A stretch of DNA of 64,000 bases from Candidatus Omnitrophota bacterium (GTDB lineage Bacteria > Omnitrophota > Gorgyraeia > Gygaellales > Profunditerraquicolaceae), in NCBI GenBank assembly GCA_041650835.1, contig JBAZKL010000006.1, forward strand, positions 1,449 to 65,448. Direction: 5' to 3'. The translations under genes were made by a program, and so were the position numbers. The notes under the pieces were generated by a model, which saw nothing but the letters and a program-made list of their open reading frames with translations, made no database searches and was not told where the DNA came from. Of the stretch, positions 11,633 to 30,248 are shown piece after piece; position 1 is the first letter of the stretch; the number at the start of each line of letters is the position of its first letter.

Positions 11633-11636
11633 GGCT

Positions 11637-12458
11637 TTACATATATCCTAACGACCGTAATTTCTGCATCATATACGCTTTTTCTTTATCCTGGACGCGC
11701 CCGGACCTCTCAGCGACGGCAGTAACGTTGAGCTCGCTCACGATCTTTTCCAGGCTGTCGGCAGATGATGCTACCGGTTGGCAGCAGCATTCACAACCGA
11801 TACTCCGGTAGCGTTGCCCTTTACGCGCAAAATAGAGGCTGACGACGGGAAGTTTTTCCTGTTTGATATACTTCCATATATCGATCTCTCTCCACCCCAG
11901 GAGCGGGTGGACCCTGAAGTGGCTTTCTTTATTTCCCCGGGTCTTATAATGCTCTGACCACAACTCCATGGACTGATTGCCATAATCCCATTTAAACTCT
12001 TTATCGCGCAGTGAAAAACACCTTTCTTTCGCCCTGATCGCGTGCTCATCCCTTCGTATAGCAACCAGTAAAGCCTTTAATCCCCGCGCTTCCACTATCT
12101 GCTTAAGCGCTTCTGTTTTTAAAGCATGACAGCACTCAAACCTGCCCTGCGAGGGAGAGATACGCTTATTGAGCGCTTCATCATTACGCGCGATGAGCAG
12201 GTCCAAACCCCATTTCCGGGCGTAACGCCTGCGAAAATCATAGATCTGTTTAAATTTAAATGTCGTATCGATATGTATGACGGGAATAGGAACCGTGCCG
12301 AGGAAGGCCTTACGCGCCAAATGCACCAATACCGTGGAATCCTTTCCCATGCTCCACAAAAGCGCTAACGCGCCGCGGTATTGCCAATACGCTTCCCTGA
12401 TGATGTAAATACTCCGGCTTTCCAGTTCAGTTAAATATAAGTTCTTTTTCATCAGCAC
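11637..12458 (-). CDS. cysD: Sulfate adenylyltransferase subunit 2 (CysD, PAPS-reductase-like ATP pyrophosphatase fold)
   Basis: PP-loop SMGKDSTV. Conserved CysD blocks (ELESRSIYIIREAY, WEHALLG-like LLGWREIDIWKYI). 273 aa. Confidence 0.85.
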   Translation of the reverse strand: MLMKKNLYLTELESRSIYIIREAYWQYRGALALLWSMGKDSTVLVHLARKAFLGTVPIPVIHIDTTFKFKQIYDFRRRYARKWGLDLLIARNDEALNKRISPSQGRFECCHALKTEALKQIVEARGLKALLVAIRRDEHAIRAKERCFSLRDKEFKWDYGNQSMELWSEHYKTRGNKESHFRVHPLLGWREIDIWKYIKQEKLPVVSLYFARKGQRYRSIGCECCCQPVASSADSLEKIVSELNVTAVAERSGRVQDKEKAYMMQKLRSLGYM

Positions 12459-12467
12459 ACGGATCGC

Positions 12468-13346
12468 TTATTTACAAAGCATGCCCCGCAAAGGCCCCGG
12501 CCCCGAGACGCAGGAGCGGCGCATGTATTTGTTGGTTATAAATAAATACGCTGTTCTCGGCAGGTCATACGCGCACGCCGTAAAAACATCGTCCCAAAAA
12601 AACCGTTTATCGTTCTTAGAGATCAATAAGCGCCTGTTCTTAAAACAAAGGTATTGCCGCAACTTCTTATCAGCCCGTGAACTATTCCCCTGATGAAAAC
12701 ATTCCGCCTGAGGATAATACCACGCGCTGTACCCGCTCCTGCGCGCTCTCCATGCCAGGTCAACATCTTCAACGAGGAAGAAAAATCTTTCATCAAAAAA
12801 TCCGGTCTCTTCCTTGACCTTCAAAAGCATCGCCTTCTTATACACTGCCGCGGCGGCGCAGGCCCCAAAGACGGGTTTACGCCTGCTGAAGGCCGCTCCA
12901 TCGCGGCGGCCGCTGCCGATATCGCGGAACCTGCGAAAATAAGTAAGCTCTATTCCGGCGGAATATATCGTCTTCTTATCAACGCGCAAGATCTTAGGCT
13001 GTATGATCCCCGTATCCGGCGGCAAAGAGGCGATCGCCTTCTTTACCTGGGCGAGGAAATCCTCACCCAGGACACAATCGCAATCCAAGGTTAAAACCCA
13101 ATCTCCCCCGCACGCTTCTATCCCCTGGTTCCTCGCTCCGGCTGCCCCAAGGTTAGAGGCATTTTCGATAAGTTTAACGCGCGGATACGCGCTTCTTATA
13201 AAACCCGCGGTGCCGTCCTGAGAGCCGTTATCGACGACAATGAGCTCATGATCATGGCATCCCTGGGCCTCAAGCGAACTTAAAGCGGCTTTGAGGAACT
13301 CAATGCTATTGCAGGTTATAATTACGATTGAGAGCATCCCACTCAT
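12468..13346 (-). CDS. Family 2 glycosyltransferase
   Basis: LSIVIITCNSIEFLKAALSSLEAQGCHDHELIVVDNGSQDGT... is a classic GT2 N-terminus. The 5' end overlaps the upstream rSAM gene, so the true start may be an internal Met. Confidence 0.8.
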   Translation of the reverse strand: MSGMLSIVIITCNSIEFLKAALSSLEAQGCHDHELIVVDNGSQDGTAGFIRSAYPRVKLIENASNLGAAGARNQGIEACGGDWVLTLDCDCVLGEDFLAQVKKAIASLPPDTGIIQPKILRVDKKTIYSAGIELTYFRRFRDIGSGRRDGAAFSRRKPVFGACAAAAVYKKAMLLKVKEETGFFDERFFFLVEDVDLAWRARRSGYSAWYYPQAECFHQGNSSRADKKLRQYLCFKNRRLLISKNDKRFFWDDVFTACAYDLPRTAYLFITNKYMRRSCVSGPGPLRGMLCK

Positions 13347-14664
13347 CCTGTAATTCTTCGTTAGTTAACGACTCTGTTTGAATAATACACTTCCGGTTAC
13401 CGTCATAATCAGCCCAGTCGTATGACTTGATCGCTTCCTTCCCGCGCAGAGCGGTAAAATACTCCGTGCCGGGAAAGGGCGTGGCGAGAGAAAACTGTAA
13501 AGAATCCGGGTTTGCGGCTTGTATGAATTCCCGGGTTTCTCTTATCGATGCTTTTGTCTCACCGGGCAGGCCCAAACAGAATGTCAGATGGACTTTCACA
13601 CCGAGCTTGCGGGTAAGCTTTATTGCCTGCATGGATCTCCTGATGTTCATTTTCTTTTTACAGGCGTTCAGGACCCTTTGATTAACCGACTCAATACCGT
13701 ATTTAACCGCGTAAAGGCCTGCCTGAGCCATAGAGAGAAGCGTATCAGCGTCCATCAAATCCGCGCGCGCCATTACCGCCCAGGGGACGGAGATCCCGCG
13801 CTTCTTTATCTGCCGGCATATCCCGCAGACATGTTTCTTATCGTAATTAAACAGGTCATCGTCAAAGTATACCGCCTTAAAGCCGTAATTCCTGATCAAA
13901 AACCCCATTTCATCTACGACCTTCTCCGGGTCCCGCTTCCTGTATTTACGCTCAAAATACAGCGTTTGAGGCCATAGGCAAAAGGTGCACCTGAACGGAC
14001 ACCCGCGGCTAGAGAGCATCTGCACGTTAGGTTGAGGCAACCCGGCGAACCCGTCGTTATAATTATACAGGGGCAACGATGCTCTTTCCGGCCAGGGGAG
14101 GCTGTCCAGGTCGACGAGAGCCTTTCTTCGGGCGCTCTCATAGATACGTCCGGCCTCTCGAAAAGCTAAACCCGGCACCGGCCTTAAAGGCAGCCCCCCG
14201 CTTATCGCTGCGGCTAGATCAACCAACGCCGTTTCATATTCACCGATCAAAACAAATGAAACAAAATCATAGCGTTCAAGGATCAATCCCGGATACACGC
14301 CGGCATGAGGCCCGCACAGGGCTATCTGACAGCCGGCAAGCGCGCGCGAGAGGCTTTGAGCGATATTGATATCGTTATCGAAACTCGGAGTTGAGGTTTC
14401 TATAACGATAAGCTCCGGCATAAAAGCCCGCACTTTTTCAATAAGGCAATTTTCATCCAGGCCTTCAGCGACCGCGTCAATAAGCCCGGCGGTATGATCA
14501 TGACGGTTCAAGAGGGCAGTCGCGTAGGCGAGAAAAAAAGGGAACGGCACATACTCAAGCTTGCCCTCTTCGCGCGGCTTAACCGTAAAGGGCCAGCGGG
14601 AACCCGCCCTGACCCCTAAACGGCCGTGTTTTCTCCACGGAAGGTTCAGTAATACGATACGCAT
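13306..14664 (-). CDS. Cobalamin-binding (class B) radical SAM enzyme
   Basis: N-terminal B12-binding-like domain (RIVLLNLPWR...GVRAGSRWP) followed by an rSAM cluster CPFRCTFCLWP (CxxxCxxC). Confidence 0.85.
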   Translation of the reverse strand: MRIVLLNLPWRKHGRLGVRAGSRWPFTVKPREEGKLEYVPFPFFLAYATALLNRHDHTAGLIDAVAEGLDENCLIEKVRAFMPELIVIETSTPSFDNDINIAQSLSRALAGCQIALCGPHAGVYPGLILERYDFVSFVLIGEYETALVDLAAAISGGLPLRPVPGLAFREAGRIYESARRKALVDLDSLPWPERASLPLYNYNDGFAGLPQPNVQMLSSRGCPFRCTFCLWPQTLYFERKYRKRDPEKVVDEMGFLIRNYGFKAVYFDDDLFNYDKKHVCGICRQIKKRGISVPWAVMARADLMDADTLLSMAQAGLYAVKYGIESVNQRVLNACKKKMNIRRSMQAIKLTRKLGVKVHLTFCLGLPGETKASIRETREFIQAANPDSLQFSLATPFPGTEYFTALRGKEAIKSYDWADYDGNRKCIIQTESLTNEELQDEWDALNRNYNLQ

Positions 14665-15065
14665 TATCTTTTCAGGTCCAAATGGCGTTCTATTTTCTGA
14701 AAGAAAACATTAATATCGTCAATACTGACAGTAACGTCTTTCGTGTCGGAACTTATCTTCTCGATGTTATGCTTTAACTCCGATAACTCTTTACGCAGGA
14801 CATCATCAGACAAGGATACCACCGCATGGTTAAGCGCAAACAAAGATCCGGTAATAGTGTAAAGGAACTCCCCCATTATCCCGATCATACGGATCACCGC
14901 CGCGAGAGCAACGCTTATGACAAGTATCAGGATAGCTGTCCCCACAGACTTGATACCCGTAAACTCATAAAAAAGCGTATGCCCGCATAATACCAGCCCC
15001 GCCGCAAAGACGGCTATCGCGGCAAGGTCCAAAACGCGTGTTGTCGGCATCTTCTTTCTTTTCAT
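14664..15065 (-). CDS. Small integral membrane protein with C-terminal coiled coil, unknown function
   Basis: 133 aa with three hydrophobic helices and a charged helical tail. Tightly packed between the rSAM and GT2 genes in the same orientation. Confidence 0.5.
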   Translation of the reverse strand: MKRKKMPTTRVLDLAAIAVFAAGLVLCGHTLFYEFTGIKSVGTAILILVISVALAAVIRMIGIMGEFLYTITGSLFALNHAVVSLSDDVLRKELSELKHNIEKISSDTKDVTVSIDDINVFFQKIERHLDLKR

Positions 15066-15100
15066 AAATACTCCTTTTTTCTAAACGATACATGCGCTGA

Positions 15101-16372
15101 TCAAAATTCCCGGGCGGACAGCTCAATCACTTTAACGCAGGGCTTAAGGTTCCATATCCAACTGTCCAGGGAATCAAAAAAAGTCTCCAAAAACAAAGAA
15201 TTAAGATACGGATGCTTCGCCTTGAACAACAAACTCCAATCCGTATGGTTCCTGACCAGCTTCTCCAGGGCGTCCAGGAAAGCGTCATCCTCAAACGCGT
15301 CCAAAGAAAGCAGCAAATGTTTATATAAACGCCTGATAAAATTATCGCTCTTAAATTCTTTTTTCAACGCGTCTCCTGAAAGCAGGGTAAGCGCGAGGCA
15401 ATTCTGGGTAAAGGCGCTCGATTCAGGCAAAAAAGTCGGCAAATTATCTCCCGGCCGGTGAAAATGATATCCGAACGTCAGGTCAACCAACGACAACCAG
15501 CAGGTTGACGGCAAAGAATCAGGATACGGCGAAGACCGGCAAAACGACATATATTCCAGGTCCTTTAACGAATGATGGAACGCCAGCAAAAAATCCAAAT
15601 AAAGCAGCTCAGGGCGCCCGGCGGCCGCGTCTTCCCTTATAAAACGGTTTGCCAACCCCAGGTTATCCTTTACCTTAAGCAGTAATTTTTCTTCGCTGGA
15701 ATAAAAACCCCGGCTCTGATGATACGGGAAATACCATCTCCAGAAATTATTAAGCACCGAACAGGCATCATCCTGCTTACAATGATAGGCGAGCGCCTGC
15801 GGCTCGTAGGTAAAGCTATACCCTGACATAAACAATCGGCCGCAAATATCGACATCTTCGTAATTATTTTTTAATATTTCGTTGTAACCTCCTACATTCA
15901 CCAAAGCTTCTTTTTTAAAAACAGTGTTTGAACCGAATAAAAATGCCGGTTTATCACCGAACCCGTCCCAGTGCTGCTTCATGTGCACGCCGCGCCAGAT
16001 ATCGGCAAAGCCGGACTGGTTTCGCTCAATGAGCTTGCCCCCCGCCCCGGCGACCTCTTTCTGCTCGAAGCTGCGCATAATATGTTTGAGCCAATCTTTT
16101 TCAGGCACACAGTCCGCGTCGATGGACGCGATATATTCGGAGCTTAAATTATGTATCGCGGTGTTACGTACCGACGCCAGGCCGGCGTTATTATCGAGCC
16201 GGAGGAGCCTTACCGGATATGTTGAGGCGACCTCCGCGCTTTTATCTCTGGAACAGTCATCGATGACCAGGATATCTTTTAACGGATACGACTGCTTCAA
16301 CGCCGCTTCAATACTCTGGCCTATCGTCTTTTCGGCATTATAGCAGGGTATATAAAGGGAAACTTCTTTCAT
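15101..16372 (-). CDS. Family 2 glycosyltransferase with ~170-aa C-terminal extension
   Basis: VSLYIPCYNAEKTIGQSIEAALKQSYPLKDILVIDDCSRDKS...DADC is GT2. The C-terminal third is unassigned. Confidence 0.75.
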   Translation of the reverse strand: MKEVSLYIPCYNAEKTIGQSIEAALKQSYPLKDILVIDDCSRDKSAEVASTYPVRLLRLDNNAGLASVRNTAIHNLSSEYIASIDADCVPEKDWLKHIMRSFEQKEVAGAGGKLIERNQSGFADIWRGVHMKQHWDGFGDKPAFLFGSNTVFKKEALVNVGGYNEILKNNYEDVDICGRLFMSGYSFTYEPQALAYHCKQDDACSVLNNFWRWYFPYHQSRGFYSSEEKLLLKVKDNLGLANRFIREDAAAGRPELLYLDFLLAFHHSLKDLEYMSFCRSSPYPDSLPSTCWLSLVDLTFGYHFHRPGDNLPTFLPESSAFTQNCLALTLLSGDALKKEFKSDNFIRRLYKHLLLSLDAFEDDAFLDALEKLVRNHTDWSLLFKAKHPYLNSLFLETFFDSLDSWIWNLKPCVKVIELSAREF

Positions 16373-16382
16373 GCTGTCGCTC

Positions 16383-17546
16383 TCAATGTATTTGCTTCCT
16401 TAAGAATTCTTTCGCGGCACGGATCTCTTCTAAAACCCGAGATGCCGGTTTTTTATTCTTTTTTAAAGGATTATTTAAACGGACAAGGGTATTGAATGTT
16501 TTCTTAAAAAGGTACTGCGCGTATTGATACGCCCTGAAATACTGGCGCTTGTAGAATTTAGGCTGTTTTATTTTTTGAGCTTTGAGAGCTATCATTTCAG
16601 GGATACTATCCACACCGTACTGCGTGTCATAGCAACTCATAAGGCAGCCTGAACATTTATCTTTCAGCACGGATCCCCGCAACAGCTCATGGGCAGCCGA
16701 TCCCCAGATCTGCGTGATCTTTTTGTCCTTACAGTTGCCGATAACGATCTCCGAAAGCACCCAGCAAAGATGTATGTCCCCCCCTGATGAGATCGGGCAC
16801 GACGCCCATAAAGCGGAGCATTGGGCACCGGTATCGCGCCGCCTGGTTCCCGTAAGGTAGGCGGGGATATTGCGCAGGTAAGCAGCCGGGTTCGTGGAAA
16901 TCCTGTATTTCCTGGAAAGCTCTATGACTTTTTCAATGCTTCTTAAGATATCACCCCGCGCTTTTTCTTCGCATAAGAACCGGCTGGAACAGGATTTATC
17001 GTTTAAGAATATATCGCTAAAGGGCTGGAATTTTACCGTCGTTACCCCAAAACGGGCGGCCAATTCCATAACTTCAGCAAGGACGCTGAAATTCAGCTTG
17101 CAGACCATGGTAGCGATCGTAGTTTCGATCTTATGGCTGCGCAAGTTTTCCAAAGCCAAAAGCGCTTTATCATAATTACCGCGCCCGCGCAGCGCGTCAT
17201 GGGCCTCCCGCGTGCCCTCGATAGAAATATTGACCACCCCTATACCCGTTGAGGCAAGCATGGCAGCCGTTTCATCGGTTATCATCGTACCGTTGGACGT
17301 AAGGCAGGTATTGACCTTACGATGGTTGGCGAACGCGATCAATTCACCGATATCAGGGCGCACGAGGGGCTCCCCTCCGCTAAAAACGATCGTGCGGGGA
17401 TGCAGCTCGATAATATCCTCTATCAAGCCTTTAAGCTCAGACGTCGTCATTTCCGGAGCGCTCGTCATGGGTATCTGGCACATCGCGCAGCGTAAATTGC
17501 AGCGGTTCGTGATCGAAATAATTACTTCCGTTAATCTCTTTTCCAT
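16383..17546 (-). CDS. Radical SAM enzyme with SPASM-type C-terminal Cys cluster
   Basis: ITNRCNLRCAMCQIP (CxxxCxxC) near the N-terminus. C-terminal CSALWASCPISSGGDIHLCW...GNCKDK...CSGCLMSC gives seven Cys in a SPASM pattern. Confidence 0.85.
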   Translation of the reverse strand: MEKRLTEVIISITNRCNLRCAMCQIPMTSAPEMTTSELKGLIEDIIELHPRTIVFSGGEPLVRPDIGELIAFANHRKVNTCLTSNGTMITDETAAMLASTGIGVVNISIEGTREAHDALRGRGNYDKALLALENLRSHKIETTIATMVCKLNFSVLAEVMELAARFGVTTVKFQPFSDIFLNDKSCSSRFLCEEKARGDILRSIEKVIELSRKYRISTNPAAYLRNIPAYLTGTRRRDTGAQCSALWASCPISSGGDIHLCWVLSEIVIGNCKDKKITQIWGSAAHELLRGSVLKDKCSGCLMSCYDTQYGVDSIPEMIALKAQKIKQPKFYKRQYFRAYQYAQYLFKKTFNTLVRLNNPLKKNKKPASRVLEEIRAAKEFLRKQIH

Positions 17547-18700
17547 TTTTTACTTTCTTTACGGATCATGGCCTCATACCGCGATAATAACGCTATCCCT
17601 TCATTCAACAAATCTTTTTCCCGCCCTTTTTCAAGGCGTAAGGAACCCGCTTCCTTGCGGAAATTCCGCACGATACCTTCTAGATCGTCAGCCTCCGGCC
17701 TCCCCCAACACGTCTGCAGGCACGGACGGTTACAGCGCAGCATTCTTTCCCGCGCGCGCTTTGCCTCTTTAGTCTCTAAACATTCACTCAAGGTCATTTC
17801 TTTGACATTTCCGAAAGCCGGCCCGCAGCTTCTCACAAAGGCGTCAGGGCCGATATCGATAAAAACATAGGGGTTGCATTTCCAGTCTTTTTTCGTAAGG
17901 TCCCACTGGAAATAACGCAGCCATAAAAAAGGGTCATGCAAGAACGCGACATACCCTTCATTCTTGCGATACTCGGCTATTTTTTCAATTTCTTGTTTTA
18001 ATCGCGGCAGATATTCGTCGGTGACCCAAAAATGCCCTGATTTGATCGTATTCTGCATATCATCCTGCGTCACAATGACCGGATGATAGACGAGGCATTC
18101 GACTCCCCGCGCCCTTGTTACGGGAATGATACCGGACAATTCACCGACATTTTCTTTCATTATGGTCGTCCAAACGGAGATCTGCGGGCCCGCGGGATAC
18201 GATCTCTTTTCCTCGCTCAAGAGGCTTAACGCCTCCAATGCCGCCTCAAAAGCGCCGGGGACTCCCCTGATCGCGTCATGCACCCCGGCGGACGCCCCGT
18301 CAAGAGAAACAGCGATATTGCTTAATCCCGAACGGATGATCTTGCGCGCGATACCCCTGTCTTTGATCTGGCTGCCGTTGCTGACCAGCTCAAGCCTGAT
18401 CCCCAGAGAAACCGCGCACGCGATGATCTCAAATATATCCTCGCGCAAAAAAGGCTCCCCGCCGGTAAAAACCATTACCGGATCAGAGTCCCATTGCGCT
18501 ACCTCTTTAAAAACTTTTTGCAGGAGCCCAAGCTCCAGTTCATGCTCCCGTAAGATCTTGCTTACTCCGCACATTTGACAGGAATAATTACAGCGATGCG
18601 TCAGGCTGACAAATATCCAATGCGGTTTACTTAACGGGACGCCAACCTGCCCTGAAAAATAATACCCCAAATTCTTTTCTAATTCTTTAAGCAGCTTCAT
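17531..18700 (-). CDS. Radical SAM enzyme with SPASM/twitch C-terminal Cys cluster (start trimmed from longest ORF at 18856 to internal ATG at 18700)
   Basis: THRCNYSCQMCGV rSAM motif. C-terminal CNPYVFIDIGPDAFVRSCGP...CNRPCLQTCW. The longest ORF overlaps the upstream gene by 116 nt. The Met at 18700 (MKLLKELEK...) removes the overlap. Confidence 0.8.
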   Translation of the reverse strand: MKLLKELEKNLGYYFSGQVGVPLSKPHWIFVSLTHRCNYSCQMCGVSKILREHELELGLLQKVFKEVAQWDSDPVMVFTGGEPFLREDIFEIIACAVSLGIRLELVSNGSQIKDRGIARKIIRSGLSNIAVSLDGASAGVHDAIRGVPGAFEAALEALSLLSEEKRSYPAGPQISVWTTIMKENVGELSGIIPVTRARGVECLVYHPVIVTQDDMQNTIKSGHFWVTDEYLPRLKQEIEKIAEYRKNEGYVAFLHDPFLWLRYFQWDLTKKDWKCNPYVFIDIGPDAFVRSCGPAFGNVKEMTLSECLETKEAKRARERMLRCNRPCLQTCWGRPEADDLEGIVRNFRKEAGSLRLEKGREKDLLNEGIALLSRYEAMIRKESKKWKRD

Positions 18701-18740
18701 ATGCCCACTTTCTTGCCGGAGGAATATTTCTTTCCCCGCG

Positions 18741-20177
18741 TCACAACTGAACTTCGCATCGATAGTGCGCGTGCAGTTTACGCGCCAGTTCCCGGAACCT
18801 GTTGAGCCGCTCTTTGCGTATCGCAGGCGTGCTCTGCGGGCTCCACCACCCGTCATCTTTTATCTCGATGCTATACTTATCGGAATTCAGGCTCAAATAA
18901 GAATCTTCTTCTAAATGGCAACCGGTGATCTGGTCAAAGCGATGGATGTAACGCGCGTTCTCTTTGACAAAATCCAGGGTCAACTGAAAATCATCTTCCG
19001 TTTCCGTAGGGTAGCCGATCAGGAAAAAACTATTCACCCTGATCTTTGCTTTCCAGGTATCCCGAAGGATCCTTTTGGTCTCCATAAGGCTGGTATTCTT
19101 ACGCATGTCCTGCAGCACCCGGTAGGAGCCGCTTTCCACGCCGTAGGAAAGATCGGTACAGCCGCTCTTTTGCATGCGGGACAACAACGCGTAATCCATT
19201 TCTTTACGCAGCGTCGCTTTTGCCGACCAGCGGATCTTTAAACGCGACTCAATGATGAGCGCGCAGAGCTTATCCAGGCGCTCGATATTGCCGTTAAAGG
19301 TTGAATCGACTATTTCAAAATCAGTGATGCCGTATTCGCCTGATAGAAAAGAAAATTCTTCGAAAACCCTTTCCGCCGACTGATACCGGTAAACTTTCCA
19401 CAAAGGGCTGTCGGCGCAAAAAGTACAGCGGTTCACGCAACCGCGGCTGGAAATGACCGGTAGGCTGCGCTTCGTATAATCATCAAGGTTAAAATCATGG
19501 AAATCAGGAGGCGGCACGATATCCAGGTCCCGTATGAGTTCTCGAGGCTGATTGGCAACTAAAGAGCCGTTTTCCCGGTAGACTCCGCCCTTGATCGTGC
19601 GATAATCTTCATTTTTCCTGATGAAAGATACTATTTCCAGAAGCGCCTGCTCCCCTTCCCCGTCAACGAACAAATCGAAAGCACCACTCTCGATAACGCC
19701 GGTATCCAGATGCGCCCTGCGAATGACGCCGTCAACGTAAATCCGCTTGATCCTGGTGACTTCACAGCCTCCGGCGACGATCGGCACGCGAGGCGCAAGT
19801 TTTTTGAGCTCCTGGGCTAAAAGCAGGCTCGCCGGCATATTCGACATAAAAAGAGAGAACCCGACGACAGAAGGACGGACCGACAATATCTGTTGAGCCC
19901 AATCTCCGAGGACCGGCTTTAAAACAGGAACGATATGCAGGTTAAAAAGTTCAGGGGTCATAAAATATTCCGGAAAATTCAAGTCCCAGCATTTCTTTTC
20001 CGGAAAAACCTTATACAACGCAGCGCTGAAATCAAAACACCTGACACTGACACCATGCTTGCGCAAAAACCCGCTGAGGTAACTGATGCCGATCGGAGGC
20101 TGCGAAACACCCCATAAGGGGCACATAACCAAAACCAACTCCGCCTGTTGATCCACGTTTCTCATATCTTCTCTCAA
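18741..20177 (-). CDS. Cobalamin-binding (class B) radical SAM enzyme
   Basis: N-terminal B12-binding-like region (LVLVMCPLWGVSQPPIGISYLSGFL). rSAM cluster SSRGCVNRCTFCADS. Confidence 0.85.
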   Translation of the reverse strand: MREDMRNVDQQAELVLVMCPLWGVSQPPIGISYLSGFLRKHGVSVRCFDFSAALYKVFPEKKCWDLNFPEYFMTPELFNLHIVPVLKPVLGDWAQQILSVRPSVVGFSLFMSNMPASLLLAQELKKLAPRVPIVAGGCEVTRIKRIYVDGVIRRAHLDTGVIESGAFDLFVDGEGEQALLEIVSFIRKNEDYRTIKGGVYRENGSLVANQPRELIRDLDIVPPPDFHDFNLDDYTKRSLPVISSRGCVNRCTFCADSPLWKVYRYQSAERVFEEFSFLSGEYGITDFEIVDSTFNGNIERLDKLCALIIESRLKIRWSAKATLRKEMDYALLSRMQKSGCTDLSYGVESGSYRVLQDMRKNTSLMETKRILRDTWKAKIRVNSFFLIGYPTETEDDFQLTLDFVKENARYIHRFDQITGCHLEEDSYLSLNSDKYSIEIKDDGWWSPQSTPAIRKERLNRFRELARKLHAHYRCEVQL

Positions 20178-20183
20178 CTGTTC

Positions 20184-21317
20184 CTATGGCCTGTTTTCAA
20201 AAAGCCTGCTTCGTTCCCGGATATCCGACATCTCAATGAATTCATCGCGGTAAGCGCACCACTGCAAACAGGGATACGCGCAGGTGCGTATCAATTTTCT
20301 CAAACGCCGCGCTTTTTTTGAGAACCATACTTCTTTTAAACGGTCCGTATCCATATTCCCGATCACTGCTTCATGCTCGGATTGATTTACGCAAAAATAT
20401 ATTTTTCCTTCCTGGACAACCTGAATACGGTTAAACCCGGAATAACAAGGAAGCTCACCGGCCTTTAAAGCGCGGCGAAAATATTTCTTTATAAGCTTTA
20501 AGTGAGGTATCGAATTGGCGATAAAATCATAATTATCGCGGCTTGAGCGCTTATACTCAATAAGGGAATCGATCGCGTTGTCCAGGAGCGCGAACTCCTG
20601 TTCAGGGACGAACACTTCCGAGCTGAAATCAATACGGTTTTGGTCGGTATTGTCGCGCACTACGGGCTGGAAAATGATCCGCGGGATCAAAAGCCTCCGG
20701 CATAAGCCGACAACATCCATGAGCTCATGCACATTTTGACCCATAATAGTGCAAACACAGACGATATTCGGCAAAACCAGCTTATTGCGTTCTTTCATCC
20801 GGTTAAGCATCGTTACGTTATCTATGATCTTTTGTAAGACGTTTTCACCCCGTATTTGAGCGACAACCTCCTCTGAGGCAGCGTCGATAGAAATGCTTAA
20901 GTTATCCAGCTTAGATTCGAATATTTTCCCGATAACAGGCTCAGTGAACAACGTCCCGTTAGTAACGACAGTCACGCCGCGCATCCCGCAAAGTTTAGCG
21001 TAGGAAATGAGCTCATAGATGCCGGCGTCTAAGAACGGCTCCCCTCCGATCAAGATCAAATACTGAACGCCCATAAGAACAGCTTCTTTAATGAGCTTCT
21101 TTATGGTCTCCTTGTCCAGTTCGGTCTGTTTATTTTGCAGGCGAAACGACTCCATACGTTCGTGCATACTGCACATTTTACAGCGCAAATTACACCGGAA
21201 GGTGAAATTGATCTGCAGGCAATCGGGGGAAACAAGCGGATAATCGATCTTTCGGGACAGCCAGAACAAAAACCCCCGCCGCATCAAATAAAATAACCGT
21301 TTACGCTCAACACTCAT
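20184..21317 (-). CDS. Radical SAM enzyme with SPASM/twitch C-terminal Cys cluster
   Basis: NFTFRCNLRCKMCSM rSAM motif. C-terminal CVNQSEHEAV...CAYPCLQWCAY. Confidence 0.85.
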   Translation of the reverse strand: MSVERKRLFYLMRRGFLFWLSRKIDYPLVSPDCLQINFTFRCNLRCKMCSMHERMESFRLQNKQTELDKETIKKLIKEAVLMGVQYLILIGGEPFLDAGIYELISYAKLCGMRGVTVVTNGTLFTEPVIGKIFESKLDNLSISIDAASEEVVAQIRGENVLQKIIDNVTMLNRMKERNKLVLPNIVCVCTIMGQNVHELMDVVGLCRRLLIPRIIFQPVVRDNTDQNRIDFSSEVFVPEQEFALLDNAIDSLIEYKRSSRDNYDFIANSIPHLKLIKKYFRRALKAGELPCYSGFNRIQVVQEGKIYFCVNQSEHEAVIGNMDTDRLKEVWFSKKARRLRKLIRTCAYPCLQWCAYRDEFIEMSDIRERSRLFENRP

Positions 21318-21329
21318 AAGATTACCTCT

Positions 21330-23252
21330 TTAGTCGGTAAAACAAGGCAGCAGGCATGGCGACGGACAACCCGCGGCCTTGCGGCGCGCCTGTCCCGCCG
21401 CGGGAGCATGAAAGATCCGCGAGAGCGGCTCTTTACGGATATTCCCGTAACAATCAAAACAGGTCGTTGTATCCCCGGTATAGGCGACAAGCATCGTTCT
21501 TTCCGCGTTACGGCACTGTATATCGCGATTGTGGAGCGTGCCGCGAAAATATTTTTTTACCAACTCCAGGTTATTCTCCGAATTCCTCAAAAACGCGCTG
21601 TTTTTCTTTTTAAAAGCAACGATATCATCGATCGCTTTATCAAGGACCGGCAGCCTTTCCGCCGGGACCCAATATTTAACCTGAGATCCCCTGTCTTTCA
21701 AGATCCGGTTATTGGAAAGTAACGGCTGAAACTGCAAAGAATCGGCACGCAACGATAAAATTGTATCCGCGATCGCCCTCAACTCTTCCAGGTTCCCGTT
21801 AAGTATGATCGTGATGACATTAAAATTTATACCCGGGGAGGTTTTTTTCCTCTCAGAAAGCATTTTTATGCCCGCGAATGTTTTTTCAAAGCTCCCCCTC
21901 AAACCGCGGATCTCATCATGCACCTGAGGGCGCAAGCTATCCAGAGAAATGCACAGCGATAACGAACCGCTTGTTAAATACGGCAGGAGCTTCCCCAGGA
22001 AATCTTGGGTGAGTAAAATACCGTTTGTCAGTATGCCGACGCGATACTTGCTTTGCTTAACAAAATCAAGGATCGGAAAGATATCGGGACGGATAAGCGC
22101 TTCCCCTCCGGAGAGCACAAAGTCCTTTACTCCCCAATCGATCGCCTGCGCGATAAGACCTTTCACTTCCTGCGTGGTATATTCAAGGATAGGCTTGTCT
22201 TTCCTTATATCGCAAATCGCGCAGGACAGGTTACAACGGTGCGTAATATCCAGTATGATAGTTTCCGGCCTTTCAAGGGTGAAGTTCGCGGGCGGACATT
22301 GCGCGTTCGGCGTTGCCGGGGCAATTTTTCTGAGCGTAAAATATTCCCTCAGATTACCGGACAAATACACGGCTTTATGCAGCATGAAATACGCGAAAAC
22401 CTGAACGCTCCTGTAAAACCCGCGTACTTTGTGTTTTTTTATTAACGAGGCCCCTAAGGTATAAGCAAAACGCGGTATTTTAAGAAAATTAACTATCGTT
22501 GCCCCTGAGAAAAAAAAGATATTATCCGTTCTTATCTCTTTTAACAGAGGATGGTCTTGATGGAAATGCTTGACCCGGCAATTACCTCTGCCGTACAAAT
22601 ATGCCTGGCGGACAAACGACCTCAGGTTCATTGAGCAATTATGGATGACCGCGACGTCCTTGCTATAAACAAACCTGCCTCCGGACTTATGCAACCTCCA
22701 GAAAAATTCCAGGTCCTCTCCTGCAGGAAAACAAAAACTCTCGGCGAATTGCCCGGACACGGAGCTTTTTTTAAAAGAAACATTGCAGGTGGGGAAAAAA
22801 ATTATTCTTTTCTCACCTTTGATATCGGCGAAGATCGCTCCGTCGCTTAAAGACTGGCTCACCAGGGCTTTTACGTTACGCTTATCAACGCAGGTTGCCC
22901 CCCCGACAACGTCCGCCCGCGGGTCGATTGCGTGCGCGTTAAGCATCGCGCGCGCCCATGAAGCCGTTAAGCTGCAATCGTCATCAGTAAACCCGACTAT
23001 GCCGGCTTTGGACTGTTTGACCCCGAAATTCCTGGCAGCTGCCGGGCCATGATTGTCCTGATAGTAATACCTCAGTCGGGGAAAAACAGGCTTTAACGCT
23101 TCAACCATCTCTTTAGTCCCGTCGGTCGAGCCGTCATCAACAACAATTATTTCAAAGCGCTCAGCGGGATAATCCTGGGCAAAAATAGATTCCAGGCAGG
23201 CTTTAAGCTTGTTTTTACGGTTAAATGTCGGGACAACTATAGAAATATCCAT
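21330..23252 (-). CDS. Bifunctional fusion: N-terminal family 2 glycosyltransferase + C-terminal radical SAM/SPASM enzyme
   Basis: N-terminus ISIVVPTFNRKNKLKACLESIFAQDYPAERFEIIVVDDGSTDGT...FTDDDC is GT2. From ~aa 330, ITHRCNLSCAICDI (CxxxCxxC) and C-terminal CFDCYGN...CPSPCLLPCF SPASM-like cysteines. 640 aa. Confidence 0.85.
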   Translation of the reverse strand: MDISIVVPTFNRKNKLKACLESIFAQDYPAERFEIIVVDDGSTDGTKEMVEALKPVFPRLRYYYQDNHGPAAARNFGVKQSKAGIVGFTDDDCSLTASWARAMLNAHAIDPRADVVGGATCVDKRNVKALVSQSLSDGAIFADIKGEKRIIFFPTCNVSFKKSSVSGQFAESFCFPAGEDLEFFWRLHKSGGRFVYSKDVAVIHNCSMNLRSFVRQAYLYGRGNCRVKHFHQDHPLLKEIRTDNIFFFSGATIVNFLKIPRFAYTLGASLIKKHKVRGFYRSVQVFAYFMLHKAVYLSGNLREYFTLRKIAPATPNAQCPPANFTLERPETIILDITHRCNLSCAICDIRKDKPILEYTTQEVKGLIAQAIDWGVKDFVLSGGEALIRPDIFPILDFVKQSKYRVGILTNGILLTQDFLGKLLPYLTSGSLSLCISLDSLRPQVHDEIRGLRGSFEKTFAGIKMLSERKKTSPGINFNVITIILNGNLEELRAIADTILSLRADSLQFQPLLSNNRILKDRGSQVKYWVPAERLPVLDKAIDDIVAFKKKNSAFLRNSENNLELVKKYFRGTLHNRDIQCRNAERTMLVAYTGDTTTCFDCYGNIRKEPLSRIFHAPAAGQARRKAAGCPSPCLLPCFTD

Positions 23253-25969
23253 TAAAGAGATACCTTTATTTCACCGGTGAAATACGTATACTCACCGGCG
23301 GGGATCTTCTGTTCTTTAGAATTCAGGACCTGCAGGACCCTCCCCCGGTGGTACATATCGGAGTTAATGATCGCCGGCACCCACGCGAAGCTTGACCTTC
23401 CGGGAGAGACGCTTACGGCAGGCATACGCTCAGAAAGCCCGTTAACCGCTTCTACGCCGACGCAAGCCGAACCGTCAGCTTCCCGATGGATACTATCCCA
23501 ATCATCATCAAGAGAATCTTTAAAATCGGGAAATTCACCGTTATTCCCGCCTGCCGTCCACCGGGTATAACGCTCTAACAGCATCAGGTTTGCCTGCAAC
23601 CGGTCGACCTCTATTTCTTCTTCCACGGTCATTTTTACGGCCACGTCTACCGAAACGCCGTTACGTATCCTGATTTCCCATAACTGGCTTACCGGCAAAT
23701 GCCGCCACTTGCCTTCGGCAACGACAAAAGAATCTTCCTGACGGACTTTCCAAAGAGCGGAAGACGAAGAATCATACCAGCGCCCGCCTGAACGCAAAGC
23801 GGTATAGAATCCCATCCGTTTAGTAAGCTCAACACCATCCCAAAACAACTCCCCGCGGCCTTTCTCAAACACAAACCTTAGCTTATCCGACTGCACCGTA
23901 CTGCCGGCCGTGTCATCGGCCAAAGGCGTATTCTCACCCAATACCACTTCCGCCTCCAAGCAAGGGTATATCCCGGGAGAATGCAGCAGTTCTTTTTCCG
24001 GTTCAACTCTTTGGACGCGCACGATCCGGGACCTCTCATTAAAATCCGCATTCATTATCTTGGCAAAATTATTCAACCCCTTGGAGAACCTGATCGTCAA
24101 AGAGGGAAACTGTTTATTCTCACTGGTAACGCCGACAGCCCCATCGCCGATACAGCGCTGAACGACGTCAACGCCGGCTTCCAGAAAATTATCGGGAAAA
24201 TTCCCCCTGCCATATTCAGAGAACCAGGAGCGATACTGCTCAGAACACATAAAACACATATATTGTTCTTCGAGAGAAACTTCCTTTTCAACTTCCAGGG
24301 TAACTTTCCAGCGGAAAGAAGATTTTCCCGTGACGGCGAGCTGCCATACCTCAATAAAGCCGAGGCCGGGACGTTTCCCCCGCGCGGTCAAGGTATAAGC
24401 GCCTGTCTTCTCAACTTCCCATTGCGCGTTATTAGAAGGCCATTGTTTTCCCTTCGAAAAGATCAAGGTCACCAAATGAAACGCCTTGGTCAAATATATG
24501 CCTGCCCAGGCAAGCAGGCAAGAGCCATGGTCGAACATCAACCGAAGCTCGCCTTGGCTGAGGATCACGTCATCCTGTTTCTTGATCAAAAAGTCGCCGG
24601 TATCAGGGACATTAAACACGACCGATCCCTGGAAATAAACGGCAGCTTGAGGAAGAGTGAGCTCATCCGCGGAGAGGACGCCTATGCTGAATCGTATAAG
24701 CCGGCAATTCAATATATAATCGCTATTATAGACTTGGGTCTTCTTTACCTGCGCGCAGCTATCATAAGAGATACCCAAAGGCGGGATTAGTCCTGCGCCC
24801 TGCGGACTCACCGCGAGGCCGATAGCCTTGCGCGCGACATTATGCTCAAGCAAAGGCTTCGCGTGCACATCCTGCAGGTCAATAGCGGGAAATTCGCCTG
24901 ATTCCACGATAGTAACCCACCGGCCATAATCATTAACGAACATAAGATCGATATGCCCCGTCTTGACCTCTATTGGCCGGGAAGCCTCGTAACTAAAGCT
25001 GAAACTTAACTCATTGTCTTGACGTATCGTTATCTTCCAGAGTATCGTTAACGGCACGTGATAAAAAACGCCCCGGGCAGATAATTCAGAATCATTCACC
25101 TGAACGACCGACCATTCAGCCTGGGTGGAACTATACCACCGGTTTGATATAAAGAAAGAACTCGTCACACCGGTATTAGGGGTCAGGAGTTTATCATTCC
25201 AATTAAAAAAAATACTGCCGTTATTAAATACGACGTCGAGGTTTTCTTTCTCCAAGACCGCCACGCCTTCTTTAACCCCGATGGTCTGCGAATACAGAGA
25301 TATGGAGCTGTCGATAAGGTCATCTTTGACCAGCCGGCCGTCTTTCATGAACAACGCCCTTTTACAAAGGCGCCCCAGGAGTGATAGGTCATGGCTGACA
25401 AAAATGATAGTCTTGCCCTGTTCCTTCAATTCCAGGACCTTCTTGATACATCTTCGCTGGTAATATTCGTCCCCGACCGACAGGATATCGTCGATCAAAA
25501 GGACCTCAAAATTAACGTGAATAGCGATGGCAAAAGCAAGCCTGACAAACATCCCTTGAGAATAACACTTTACCGGCGCGTTAATAAACCTGCCGATCTC
25601 GGCGAAACATACAATATCTTTCGTTCTCTCCTCAATTTCATTATGGGGGACGCCGAACAAACCGACATTCAAATGAACGTTCTCTAATCCCGTCAATTCC
25701 GGCTGAAACCCCGCGCCTAACTCCAGCAAGCCGGAGACCCTGCCGTTCACCCGGACCTGTCCCCTGTCAGGCTGCAACATGCCCATGATCAATTTTAATA
25801 TGGTTGTTTTACCCGAACCGTTACCGCCGATGAGTGAGAGTGCCTCTCCCTGCTCGACTTCGAACGATATATTCTTCAGCGCCCAGAAATTCTCCCACCT
25901 GGCCTTTTGGTCTTCCACCATCTTAAGGCGGTACATTTCCCAGACATCGTTAAAAGAAATAATTTTCAT
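23252..25969 (-). CDS. wzt: ABC transporter ATP-binding protein (Wzt/TagH/KpsT-like) with ~650-aa C-terminal extension
   Basis: Walker A GGNGSGKTT, signature YSQGMFVRLAFA, Walker B LLIDDIL, H-loop VSHD within the first ~250 aa. The remaining ~650 aa are non-ABC. Confidence 0.85.
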   Translation of the reverse strand: MKIISFNDVWEMYRLKMVEDQKARWENFWALKNISFEVEQGEALSLIGGNGSGKTTILKLIMGMLQPDRGQVRVNGRVSGLLELGAGFQPELTGLENVHLNVGLFGVPHNEIEERTKDIVCFAEIGRFINAPVKCYSQGMFVRLAFAIAIHVNFEVLLIDDILSVGDEYYQRRCIKKVLELKEQGKTIIFVSHDLSLLGRLCKRALFMKDGRLVKDDLIDSSISLYSQTIGVKEGVAVLEKENLDVVFNNGSIFFNWNDKLLTPNTGVTSSFFISNRWYSSTQAEWSVVQVNDSELSARGVFYHVPLTILWKITIRQDNELSFSFSYEASRPIEVKTGHIDLMFVNDYGRWVTIVESGEFPAIDLQDVHAKPLLEHNVARKAIGLAVSPQGAGLIPPLGISYDSCAQVKKTQVYNSDYILNCRLIRFSIGVLSADELTLPQAAVYFQGSVVFNVPDTGDFLIKKQDDVILSQGELRLMFDHGSCLLAWAGIYLTKAFHLVTLIFSKGKQWPSNNAQWEVEKTGAYTLTARGKRPGLGFIEVWQLAVTGKSSFRWKVTLEVEKEVSLEEQYMCFMCSEQYRSWFSEYGRGNFPDNFLEAGVDVVQRCIGDGAVGVTSENKQFPSLTIRFSKGLNNFAKIMNADFNERSRIVRVQRVEPEKELLHSPGIYPCLEAEVVLGENTPLADDTAGSTVQSDKLRFVFEKGRGELFWDGVELTKRMGFYTALRSGGRWYDSSSSALWKVRQEDSFVVAEGKWRHLPVSQLWEIRIRNGVSVDVAVKMTVEEEIEVDRLQANLMLLERYTRWTAGGNNGEFPDFKDSLDDDWDSIHREADGSACVGVEAVNGLSERMPAVSVSPGRSSFAWVPAIINSDMYHRGRVLQVLNSKEQKIPAGEYTYFTGEIKVSL

Positions 25970-26749
25970 TTATATATTCTTTAATATCCTGTTCTCCAGG
26001 CGGGAGAAAACGATAAAGCCCAGGATAACGCTTATGACAGACCAGCAAAAAACGCCCCGGATCAACAAGGCGTCGGGGATAACGCCGTAATAAAGGATTT
26101 TCTGATAAGAAAGAATGAACGGGACCATTGGGTTAAAATTAAATATCCACTGGAACCGCTCGGGCATGACATCGACCGAATAAAAAACAGGAGTAAGCCA
26201 AAACAGGAACATGAGCGCCACCGACAGTAAATAAACGATATCCCGGAATAAAACGGTAAGGACTGACAAAAGCAGCCCCAGCCCCAGCAGCAAAACCAGA
26301 TGAAAAAGAAATATAACGGATAAAACCGGCGCCAGAAGGATTATTTTCGGGTTAAAAAACAAGAAAACCGGGAATAAAACCAGCCAACCGATCAGGAAGT
26401 TAAGGAAATGCGCCAGGACCGAGCTTAACGGCAGGATCTCCCTGGGCAGGTTAAACTGCCGTAATATATTAAGTTGATTCAAGATAGAACCCGCTGATTC
26501 CGTCAAAGCGTTTGAGAAAAACATCCAGGGTATAATGCCCGAAAAAATAAAGAGAGGAAAATTACGCATCTCCACCTTAAAAACACAGGTAAAAACAAAT
26601 GTTATGACCGACATGATCAAAAAAGGGCTGATCAAAGAAGCATATATCCCGGTAAAGGAAGAAGCATAACGCGCCTTTAACTGGGATATCGCCATGTCCC
26701 AGAGCGTGTGCCGGTAAAGAAAAAGCGCTTTGAGCCTGCCGTGTATCAT
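25970..26749 (-). CDS. wzm: ABC-2 type transporter permease (Wzm-like)
   Basis: 259 aa with six hydrophobic helices. Immediately upstream of, and abutting, the ATPase gene. Confidence 0.8.
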   Translation of the reverse strand: MIHGRLKALFLYRHTLWDMAISQLKARYASSFTGIYASLISPFLIMSVITFVFTCVFKVEMRNFPLFIFSGIIPWMFFSNALTESAGSILNQLNILRQFNLPREILPLSSVLAHFLNFLIGWLVLFPVFLFFNPKIILLAPVLSVIFLFHLVLLLGLGLLLSVLTVLFRDIVYLLSVALMFLFWLTPVFYSVDVMPERFQWIFNFNPMVPFILSYQKILYYGVIPDALLIRGVFCWSVISVILGFIVFSRLENRILKNI

Positions 26750-28050
26750 AATAATAATGATTCCGCTGTATTCTTGCCGTCAAGTATCGCGTCTTCCATG
26801 GACATGTACCGCCATGAGCCGTAGCGGCCGCATAAAAACATGTTTTTTCCCAGCAGGTAGCGCGCAATGACGCCGCGCGCCGGGTTGTAATTTCTATCAT
26901 ACAGAGGATACCCGTATTGAATATCATTAACACTGCTCAGGCAAACACGGTTTTCCGCCGGCAGGAGCCCTACCTTCTTTAGGTCTTTTTTTATACGGGC
27001 GATCATACTCTTTTTATCAATGCCTTTTCCTGGTGAATAAGATGCTTCAATATACAAAGAACTTTTACGCGCCGGGACAAGATGAGAAGAAAAATTATGA
27101 GGAAACCCGGCACGGAAAAAACACACATCTTTCTGGGGGTAATATATCCAATGCCTTCGGCTGGATTCCTGCCCGTCGAATCCGAGATTGAGGTTAAAGA
27201 TCGAATTCCATCTTAATTTTGAGAACGCCCTCTCGACCGCGGGCGGCACCCGACTCAAAAGCTTTGCCGCTTCAGGTAACGGCAGCGTTGAAACTAAACG
27301 CTCGAAAGCTACCTTCTCTCCATGGGAAAAAGATACTTCCTGCTTCTCCAGATCGATCCCCGTAACCAGGCAACCGGTATGTATTTGACGCAGGCTCCTT
27401 GCGAAAGCCTGCGGGACTTCGCTGATCCCGCCCGCTCGGGGATACCAGAACCGGGCATTATAGCCGTATTGGCGCTTACTTTCCTCGATAGTCCCTTCGA
27501 CGATCTCCTTTAAGGTAGGAACGGGTATAAAGCCATCGAACCATTCGCAGGTCATCTGCTGAGGCGCAATTGTCCAGAACTTAGTATTGTAGGGGACCAT
27601 GAAATGCCGCGCGATGCCGCGGCCGAACGTAGCATGTATCCAGGACAAAAAATCACGCTTTTTACCGGACTCTTTTTCGGGGCTGTTTTGCGCCTCAATA
27701 AAGCCCAGGAGGCATTCTTCAACGACAGAATGCGGCAGCCCGAAGAGATTAGCCTGAAAAGGATAACGGGTATCCAAGCCGAATGAATGGACCCAGGCGC
27801 TTTTTTGATGTTCGGCTAAATTTCCCGCCAACATCCTTTTGATCAGGTCGAACGCGTACGCCTGCTTAAAATGCAGCAAGTGCCCGCAATAATCAAAAGT
27901 AAAATCATTTATTTTCCGGGAACGGCATAACCCGCCGGCCTCATCTTCCTTTTCATACACATGGCAGTCAATACCGTTTTTCTGCAGATGCCATGCAGCG
28001 CTCAAACCCGCGACCCCAGCTCCTAAAATAACGACCTTTGTTTTAACCAT
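26746..28050 (-). CDS. FAD/NAD(P)-binding oxidoreductase resembling UDP-galactopyranose mutase
   Basis: Rossmann GxGxxG at the N-terminus (VVILGAGVAGLSAAWHL...YEKEDEAGG). Internal YNTKFWT block resembling the Glf Y-x-E-K-Q-W motif. 434 aa. Confidence 0.55.
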   Translation of the reverse strand: MVKTKVVILGAGVAGLSAAWHLQKNGIDCHVYEKEDEAGGLCRSRKINDFTFDYCGHLLHFKQAYAFDLIKRMLAGNLAEHQKSAWVHSFGLDTRYPFQANLFGLPHSVVEECLLGFIEAQNSPEKESGKKRDFLSWIHATFGRGIARHFMVPYNTKFWTIAPQQMTCEWFDGFIPVPTLKEIVEGTIEESKRQYGYNARFWYPRAGGISEVPQAFARSLRQIHTGCLVTGIDLEKQEVSFSHGEKVAFERLVSTLPLPEAAKLLSRVPPAVERAFSKLRWNSIFNLNLGFDGQESSRRHWIYYPQKDVCFFRAGFPHNFSSHLVPARKSSLYIEASYSPGKGIDKKSMIARIKKDLKKVGLLPAENRVCLSSVNDIQYGYPLYDRNYNPARGVIARYLLGKNMFLCGRYGSWRYMSMEDAILDGKNTAESLLL

Positions 28051-29029
28051 CTAATGATGCTTTACCGAAAGACCTGGTTAAGAGAAAACTGCATGCTATT
28101 AAGGCAAGAATAATGATACTCCCCGCGGAATTCTTGAACCCATGCAAAATAGCCCCGCACAATGAATACACTAAAGCGATACATCCTATATACACCAGCG
28201 CCTGGCGCTTTGAAAAGCCGGCTTTGAGCAATCGCAACGCGAAATGGTCGGCGCTTTTCTTAAAAACAGATTTTTTCCGGCGCATACGCATTAACATGAC
28301 GAACACCGTATCAAAAATAGGGAACCCGAGGATCACTAACGGGCTCAACAACGCTACCCGGTTTTCCATATCGGCATATTGCAGGACCAAAGAAATCGCG
28401 GCAAGGACGAAACCGACAAAGTGGCTGCCGGAATTCCCCATATATATTCGGGCGGGAGGAAAATTAAAAACCAGGAAACTTAAAAGGACAGCCGCTAATA
28501 TTATCGATATGACCGCGCTTCCTAAATCGTATTGGAACAACCCCAGCACGAAGAAAGAAAAGACCGCTATCAGCGCGACAAGGCCGGCTAAACCGTCCAT
28601 AACATCCAAATGATTGAACGCGTTAGTAATGCCGACCACCCACACCAGCGTGAGGATCGCGTTTGGAACTGCCCCGATCCCGGCTATCTGGGTCCTTACA
28701 TTAAAAAAAACAAGCAGCAAAGCCGCGATCGCCTGGACCGCGAATTTAGAAGCTACGGATAATTCCTTGAGATCATCGATAACGCCAAAGGCCAGCATGA
28801 CCAGGGAAGCCAGTAATAATCCCCAGAGCTCTTTTATCCAAAATCCTCCGCCGATAAGCCAAATGGCAGACACGATCAGGAAGCTTAGCCCCATCGCGAT
28901 ACCTCCTGCCAGAGGGATGCCGCGGACGGACAAAAGCTTCGATTTCGCGAAGCGCTTCAGAAATATAAGCAAAAACAAAGAACTCACGCTAAAAGCAACA
29001 AATAACAAGAGAGCGAATTTAACGATCAT
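28043..29029 (-). CDS. Polyprenol-phosphate N-acetylhexosamine-1-phosphate transferase (WecA/MraY family, Glycos_transf_4)
   Basis: Ten TM helices. Conserved VGITNAFNHLDVMDGLAGL and cytoplasmic DD motifs of the MraY/WecA family. Confidence 0.85.
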   Translation of the reverse strand: MIVKFALLLFVAFSVSSLFLLIFLKRFAKSKLLSVRGIPLAGGIAMGLSFLIVSAIWLIGGGFWIKELWGLLLASLVMLAFGVIDDLKELSVASKFAVQAIAALLLVFFNVRTQIAGIGAVPNAILTLVWVVGITNAFNHLDVMDGLAGLVALIAVFSFFVLGLFQYDLGSAVISIILAAVLLSFLVFNFPPARIYMGNSGSHFVGFVLAAISLVLQYADMENRVALLSPLVILGFPIFDTVFVMLMRMRRKKSVFKKSADHFALRLLKAGFSKRQALVYIGCIALVYSLCGAILHGFKNSAGSIIILALIACSFLLTRSFGKASLDG

Positions 29030-30210
29030 TCCCGGATACCTTTTGTTTTCAAGATACTCTCATACATCCCTGCAGTCTCCAGAACCATTTTCCCGGCGCT
29101 AAAACTATCCCCCAAAGCTTCTCTTGAGGCCTGCCCCAGGCGTTTCCTCAAAGCATCATTCTTCAATAAGGCGCTCACCTGCCGCGCCATCAACGCGGGT
29201 TCACGCGCGGCGACAAGAAATCCGGTCACTCCATTTTTAACTACCTCGGCTACCCCGCCGGTGTTGGTCACGACTACCGGCACTTCTAAACGCATCGCTT
29301 CCAATACCACGACCGGTAAACCTTCCCACAAAGAGGTCAAAACCAGTACATCCATCGCGGCATAAAGCTCAGGCATATCAAAACGCCAGCCAGCCAGGAT
29401 GACCTGGCTCCCAAGGCCGGATTCACCGATCTTTTTCTCTATACGGCCGCGTAAAACGCCGTCTCCCACAAGCAGGAATCTTACCCGGCAGGGGAGCTTT
29501 TCAGAAACGCAATATTCACTTATTAACGAAGCTATCCTGATAAAATCAAGGGGGTTTTTTTGAGGCTTAAAACAGGCTGCCATCCCCACAAGCAGCTCAT
29601 TGTCTCGAATTCCCAAACGCTCCCTGGCTTTAGACCGGACATCTTCCTGTTGAGGCCGGAACTCATGGTAATCGATCCCATAGCGTATCAACCGGTACAA
29701 AGAGCCCCCGCCGATCTTAAGCATGCACCCCTTTTGCTTATCAAAAAGCGAAACAACGATCACCGCGTCGGAAAACCGCGCGCAAACCCTTTCAAGCCAA
29801 ATGTAAACAAACCTTACAAAAGCAGGCTGATATTCATTGAACGACCACCCATGCACCGTATGAATGATACTGGGCGCTTTGGCAAGCCGGGCGGCGAGCC
29901 GGCCAAGAATACCGGCTTTAGAACTATGCGTGTGGACAACATGAAACTTATTTTTACGGATAAACCAATAGATCTCAAAGAAAGCTATCAGGTCTTTTAA
30001 AGGATTCACCGGCCGTTCGAGAAACCGCGACGCGTGGATGCTCACCCCCGGGATAGAGGCAGCCTCTTTGAAAAGCAGGCCTTGATGAGCGCTAAACAAT
30101 ACAACGGCATACCTGGATTTATCAAGGCCGGCAATAAGGCTTAAGAGTTGTTTTTGCGCTCCCCCCAGCTCTAATTTCGTAATAACATACAACAGGTTTA
30201 TCTTCGGCAT
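29026..30210 (-). CDS. Family 1 (CAZy GT4-like, GT-B) glycosyltransferase; first gene of the glycan operon
   Basis: C-terminal EGLPVVVLEAMRLEVPVVVTNTGGVAEVV is the Glycos_transf_1 E-x7-E region. Preceded by a sigma70-like promoter. Confidence 0.85.
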   Translation of the reverse strand: MPKINLLYVITKLELGGAQKQLLSLIAGLDKSRYAVVLFSAHQGLLFKEAASIPGVSIHASRFLERPVNPLKDLIAFFEIYWFIRKNKFHVVHTHSSKAGILGRLAARLAKAPSIIHTVHGWSFNEYQPAFVRFVYIWLERVCARFSDAVIVVSLFDKQKGCMLKIGGGSLYRLIRYGIDYHEFRPQQEDVRSKARERLGIRDNELLVGMAACFKPQKNPLDFIRIASLISEYCVSEKLPCRVRFLLVGDGVLRGRIEKKIGESGLGSQVILAGWRFDMPELYAAMDVLVLTSLWEGLPVVVLEAMRLEVPVVVTNTGGVAEVVKNGVTGFLVAAREPALMARQVSALLKNDALRKRLGQASREALGDSFSAGKMVLETAGMYESILKTKGIRE

Positions 30211-30220
30211 AATCTTATTT

Positions 30221-30248
30221 ATTATATCGTTAATTAAAAAAATTTCAA
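30221..30248 (-). promoter_or_regulatory. Sigma70-type promoter TTGAAA-N16-TATAAT driving the glycan operon
   Basis: Minus strand: TTGAAA (plus 30243-30248), 16-nt spacer, TATAAT (plus 30221-30226), then 10 nt to the ATG at 30210. Confidence 0.45.

Follow-up and report, generated by a model that had tools for sequence, protein, structure and literature searches.

Six radical SAM (rSAM) genes lie among nine consecutive genes of a glycan-export locus in a Candidatus Omnitrophota MAG, from which a 64,000-nucleotide stretch of DNA, hereafter the window, was analysed. The locus is read here as a Wzm/Wzt-dependent pathway for a polyprenyl-phosphate-linked surface glycan, in which soluble cytoplasmic rSAM enzymes would tailor the lipid-linked glycan before export, and a probability of roughly 0.6 is assigned to this reading. 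Pfam assigns a Radical_SAM domain (E 1e-17 to 1e-27) to all six rSAM ORFs within 13306-23252, each with an intact CxxxCxxC motif, and GT2 genes (12468-13346 and 15101-16372) are interleaved with them. A sequence-only reading had previously described a glycan-export locus saturated with rSAM enzymes, which holds for the six intact rSAMs among GT2 genes with Wzm/Wzt, whereas its assignment of one rSAM to a class and its identification of a UGM-like flavoenzyme had to be revised. Nineteen genes, including the rSAM block, a WecA-like primase, a GT4 gene and Wzm/Wzt, run in one direction from 30210 to 6952 (minus strand, as for all features below unless stated otherwise), with junctions that overlap by 1-41 nt or leave gaps of at most 40 nt, in agreement with the overlapping start and stop codons reported before. 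The promoter proposed earlier at 30221..30248 is the top sigma-70-like match in 11500-31000 (TTGAAA-16-TATAAT, 11/12), as a consensus match only, and is preceded by a hairpin (read by eye) and a T-run after the H+-PPase stop codon. Because the -10 hexamer ends just 10 nt ahead of the ATG at 30210, the transcript would be nearly leaderless.

Genes for Wzm, Wzt, a Wzy_C protein and members of the WecA, GT4 and GT2 families all support this identification of the pathway. The first gene of the array (29026..30210) encodes a GT4-family (GT-B) glycosyltransferase (Pfam Glycos_transf_1, 115.6 bits, and Glyco_trans_4_4; NCBIfam matches below cutoff), followed by a multi-TM priming enzyme, a WecA/MraY-family polyprenyl-phosphate HexNAc-1-P transferase (28043..29029; PF00953, 114.9 bits), which has about ten hydrophobic segments and scores 93 bits against the WecA model TIGR02380 (cutoff 326). 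The FAD/NAD(P) flavoprotein encoded next (26746..28050) is the enzyme that had been called UGM-like; this identity was rejected, as the protein has no GLF domain and instead matches the amine-oxidase/PRK07208 family (PF01593, 98.7 bits, and PF13450, that is, Amino_oxidase/NAD_binding_8; PRK07208, 177 bits, below cutoff). Its gene adjoins that of the ABC-2 permease Wzm (25970..26749; PF01061 and hydrophobic segments) in 16 of 20 long loci from relatives, and both Wzm and Wzt are found in 19 of these 20. Wzt (905 aa, 23252..25969; PF00005) consists of an ABC nucleotide-binding domain (residues 1-235), which shares 40-42% identity with O-antigen Wzt proteins of solved structure, and a tail of three tandem all-beta repeats of about 215 aa (236-455, 466-680 and 686-905), for which sequence and profile searches gave no match and a fold search was dominated by ABC domains. 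By analogy with other Wzt proteins, in which a carbohydrate-binding domain recognises a cap at the chain end, the conserved triple-repeat tail plausibly reads the modified glycan. Further downstream, a distal GT2 (4005-4970), a Wzy_C/O-antigen-ligase-like membrane protein (5067-6209, plus strand) and a Dpm1/AglJ-like GT2 (6178-6903, plus strand) were identified by Pfam and NCBIfam; the last two come directly after the GT2 gene GT2b in L036, a relative with 80% identity. The Wzm/Wzt, WecA-like, O-antigen-ligase-like and Dpm1-like assignments made before were all borne out by such family matches.

The fusion of one rSAM to a glycosyltransferase, also noted previously, was confirmed as a 640-aa GT2::radical SAM/SPASM protein (21330..23252; Pfam GT2, rSAM and SPASM), whose start codon shares one base with the wzt stop codon. 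It comprises a GT2 domain (residues 1 to about 205), a conserved helical linker (about 210-310), the rSAM core (326 to about 510) and a Cys-rich C-terminus (580-637). Across 56 homologs D90/D92, E179-D180, C340/C344/C347 and G382-G383-E384 are invariant, as are the C-terminal C580, C598, C629, C633 and C637; judged by the retained DxD, ED, CxxxCxxC and GGE motifs, both halves are intact. In the AF2 model (pLDDT 87), Foldseek likened the GT2 part to TarP/TarS/WrtF and the rSAM part to BlsE (TM 0.70), SkfB, SuiB and DesII. A search at E<=1e-20 yielded 331 homologs, and among the best 120 of them all have both domains and all with a source-named organism belong to Omnitrophota/Omnitrophica.

The other five rSAMs fall into two classes. 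SPASM3 (377 aa, 20184..21317; PF04055, 85.7 bits, and PF13186, 33.6 bits) lies below every NCBIfam cutoff, and its paralogs are multiplied in other loci. SPASM1 (387 aa, 16383..17546; PF04055, 93.9 bits, and PF13186, 31.1 bits) has seven C-terminal Cys. B12rSAM2, a class B (B12-binding) enzyme of 474 aa (18741..20165, start taken from public gene calls; PF02310, 39.6 bits, and PF04055, 63 bits), has RiPP C-methyltransferases as its top NCBIfam matches, all below cutoff, with TIGR03975 first (152 bits, cutoff 282). B12rSAM1 (452 aa, 13306..14664) is a class B enzyme of the HpnJ/BchE-like type (PF04055, 74.7 bits; PF02310, 27.7 bits, under its cutoff of 32.1), which scores 257 bits over residues 36-449 against the HpnJ model TIGR03471 (cutoff 577) and has AprD4 as its nearest PDB sequence (91 bits). 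Beyond the closest relatives, its best 120 homologs are 451-452 aa long and 53-60% identical, a higher range than for the fusion (45-59%) or Wzt (40-53%), the three proteins searched. The remaining enzyme, SPASM2 (389 aa, 17531..18700; PF04055, 67 bits), is encoded in an ORF of 17531-18856 whose real start is probably at 18700. It was rejected as a class B enzyme, as Pfam detects no B12 domain in it, its best NCBIfam matches are to SPASM-type families, among them AhbD and TIGR04053, and it is a paralog of SPASM3 and the rSAM domain of the fusion (27% identity to each over the full length), with which it shares a C-terminal C...C...Cx3Cx3C pattern. Its orthologs (47-59% identity) occur in 12 of the 20 long loci. 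Since a B12 domain is confined to 13306-14664 and 18741-20165 and SPASM2 is a SPASM paralog, the split is two class B and four SPASM/twitch enzymes instead of the three and three claimed before. The profile assignment suggested in the sequence-only reading separated these two classes, but none of the six reaches any NCBIfam family cutoff, and no reaction can therefore be assigned to them. None has a convincing TM helix either, the sole segment above a crude threshold being marginal and inside the SPASM2 rSAM core, and they are thus probably cytoplasmic.

Relatives were gathered with the fusion as query, which gave 44 loci, nearly all labelled Omnitrophota; they were inspected 10 kb on each side, so that the counts are minimum numbers and genes farther out are under-represented. 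Of about 40 related genomes compared, nearly all share the rSAM-rich layout, and the proposal to check neighbourhood conservation was answered by rSAM-Wzm/Wzt synteny in about 35 Omnitrophota genomes. Recurrence of the arrangement of six rSAMs in nine genes is beyond chance. The common order is Wzm, Wzt (about 905 aa), GT2::rSAM, a variable rSAM array, SPASM2, SPASM1, the GT2 gene GT2c, a small membrane coiled-coil protein, B12rSAM1 and GT2b. Long loci (at least 20 kb) have 2-11 rSAM genes (median 6), and one further contig has 13 in 21 kb. The ends of the locus are conserved across the phylum, while the mid-locus rSAM array varies in number and type, suggesting that rSAMs are a main source of glycan diversity. 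No nucleotide-sugar enzyme is encoded in the window locus or among the variable-array genes annotated in relatives (about 30 genes). The other array genes in relatives are glycan enzymes and include PMT_2/TPR GT-C proteins, GT9, GH44-like, CBM30, GDSL, class I methyltransferases and polysaccharide deacetylase. In addition, further fusions were found with the architectures GT2-GT2-GT1-rSAM, B12rSAM-GT2-rSAM, FkbM methyltransferase-rSAM, rSAM-methyltransferase, GT2-rSAM-rSAM, GT28-GT2-rSAM and rSAM-rSAM-GT2-rSAM, and the recurrent GT-rSAM fusions link the rSAMs to glycosyl transfer. Judged from sequence, the recurrence of this layout suggests a radical chemistry, as yet undescribed, that acts on an exported glycan. 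Searches of the open-access literature found no description of such an rSAM-rich glycan locus, in agreement with the earlier remark that the number of rSAMs is beyond characterised glycan pathways.

The observations comprise gene content, intact catalytic motifs, synteny, gene fusions and a lack of RiPP hallmarks; what the substrate is, in which order the steps run and what each reaction yields are inferred from them as follows. Judging from family membership, the WecA-like enzyme would prime the lipid carrier, and the GT4 and GT2 enzymes would extend the glycan. The four SPASM/twitch and two B12 rSAMs may each take a hydrogen atom from a C-H group of a sugar in the lipid-linked intermediate and then install changes beyond ordinary sugar enzymes; candidate outcomes are epimerisation, oxidation, dehydration and decarboxylation for the former and C-methylation and ring contraction for the latter. 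To name methylation, epimerisation, dehydration, ring contraction or cross-linking for these rSAMs, or to call the product heavily C-modified as before, is nevertheless to guess. The fusion suggests that addition of one residue is coupled to radical modification of that residue. Wzm/Wzt would export the finished glycan, and the Wzy_C-family protein may ligate it to an acceptor. There is a precedent for rSAM action on a lipid-linked sugar in ring contraction by HpnJ and calditol synthase (PMC13459092), and sugar-acting rSAMs (BlsE, DesII, AprD4 and HpnJ) are among the nearest structure or profile neighbours of the locus enzymes.

It is also possible, although rather unlikely, that the rSAMs act before glycosyl transfer and convert common nucleotide sugars into rare donors for the GT2s, in the manner of DesII, BlsE and AprD4 acting on nucleotide- or aglycone-bound monosaccharides; substrates would then be soluble and the association with the glycan would be kept. 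The structural proximity of the fusion rSAM domain to BlsE and DesII and the position of AprD4 as closest PDB sequence for both class B enzymes fit this alternative, as does the lack of conventional nucleotide-sugar genes in the locus, because something must supply sugar diversity. However, polymer-modifying GT2s (TarP, TarS and WrtF) are the closest structural matches of the fusion's GT2 domain, the locus has no nucleotidyltransferase, and the multi-GT-multi-rSAM fusions fit a tethered assembly line somewhat better.

An improbable variant is that the rSAMs modify the polyprenyl carrier or the lipid moiety of a glycolipid, in the way that Grs, Hbs, Hgm, HpnP/R, Tes and Mss modify membrane lipids, with the GT2s adding head groups and Wzm/Wzt exporting the glycolipid. 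Tetraether lipids are modified by the AhbD-like SPASM enzyme Hbs and by a B12-type methylase, and 12 Omnitrophota genomes encode Hbs homologs (10.1101/2023.10.20.563219). AhbD is the best sub-threshold NCBIfam match of SPASM2 and, among rSAM families, of the fusion rSAM domain; B12rSAM1 matches HpnJ best and also the ladderane-lipid family TIGR04072 (sub-threshold), and a flavoprotein of the phytoene-desaturase superfamily is conserved beside the WecA-like gene. All these lipid-family scores are far under cutoff, though, and the fusion partners of the rSAMs are GT catalytic domains, not lipid-binding ones; accessory array genes are carbohydrate-active, and among the annotated window genes none is a lipid-core gene such as Tes, Mss or squalene-hopene cyclase.

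A RiPP or protein-maturation role, in which a peptide or protein modified by the rSAMs would be glycosylated by the GT2s, as in glycocin systems, and exported by the ABC-2 transporter, is disfavoured and very improbable, in accordance with the earlier statement that no precursor peptide is present. No PqqD/RRE match was found at E<=0.01, and the rSAM cores begin 10-45 residues from the N-terminus or right after GT2, leaving no space for an RRE. Junctions within the rSAM block leave 40 nt or less, the intergenic gaps of the 44 loci share no conserved small ORF, and the only small gene encodes the 2-TM coiled-coil protein. The ABC transporter belongs to the O-antigen exporters of Wzt type and not to the peptidase-containing kind, and a lipid-linked glycan is what the WecA-like primase and the Wzy_C protein point to. 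What speaks for such a role is sub-threshold similarity to RiPP C-methyltransferases (TIGR03975, ApyD) and to maturases of sactipeptides and ranthipeptides, together with the presence of the peptide maturases SuiB and SkfB among the structural neighbours of the fusion rSAM. Overall, Wzm/Wzt synteny, GT-rSAM fusions and the absence of PqqD/RRE and of a conserved small ORF support the view that the rSAM genes are part of the glycan pathway and not of a RiPP system; this part of the previous interpretation stands.

Of the genes interleaved with the rSAMs, GT2c (15101..16372; PF00535, 108.6 bits) has a C-terminal extension of about 200 aa of unknown function and a conserved place after SPASM1, and GT2b (12468..13346) matches PF00535 at 95.2 bits. 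The small membrane protein (14664..15065) combines a coiled coil with two predicted TM helices, has a conserved C-terminal motif, CDTKD...IE(R/K)HL..K, and gives no Pfam or NCBIfam match; in an alignment from 10 loci the coiled-coil length ranges from 112 to 295 aa. The array continues on the same strand with four genes overlooked before, which encode the sulfate adenylyltransferase subunits CysD (11637-12458; PF01507, 133.5 bits) and CysN (10391-11632; PF00009, 112.8 bits) and two membrane-anchored proteins of the alkaline-phosphatase superfamily with an N-terminal TM segment, of the Phosphodiest (689 aa, 8315-10384) and Sulfatase (6952-8331) families (Pfam). The CysD/CysN block is present in L003 and absent from L036. 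The sulfatase-family gene within the array and the weak match of SPASM1 to the anSME model TIGR03942 (66.6 bits, cutoff 349) would fit one or more SPASM enzymes serving as anSME for this protein, but the idea is effectively refuted in the window, as the C/S-x-P-x-R formylglycine motif of sulfatases is replaced by T-A-P-A-L in this protein; moreover, L036 and most loci lack the CysDN/phosphodiesterase/sulfatase block and retain the rSAMs. A seventh rSAM, of B12 type and likewise overlooked before, is encoded at 33325-34620, outside the glycan locus.

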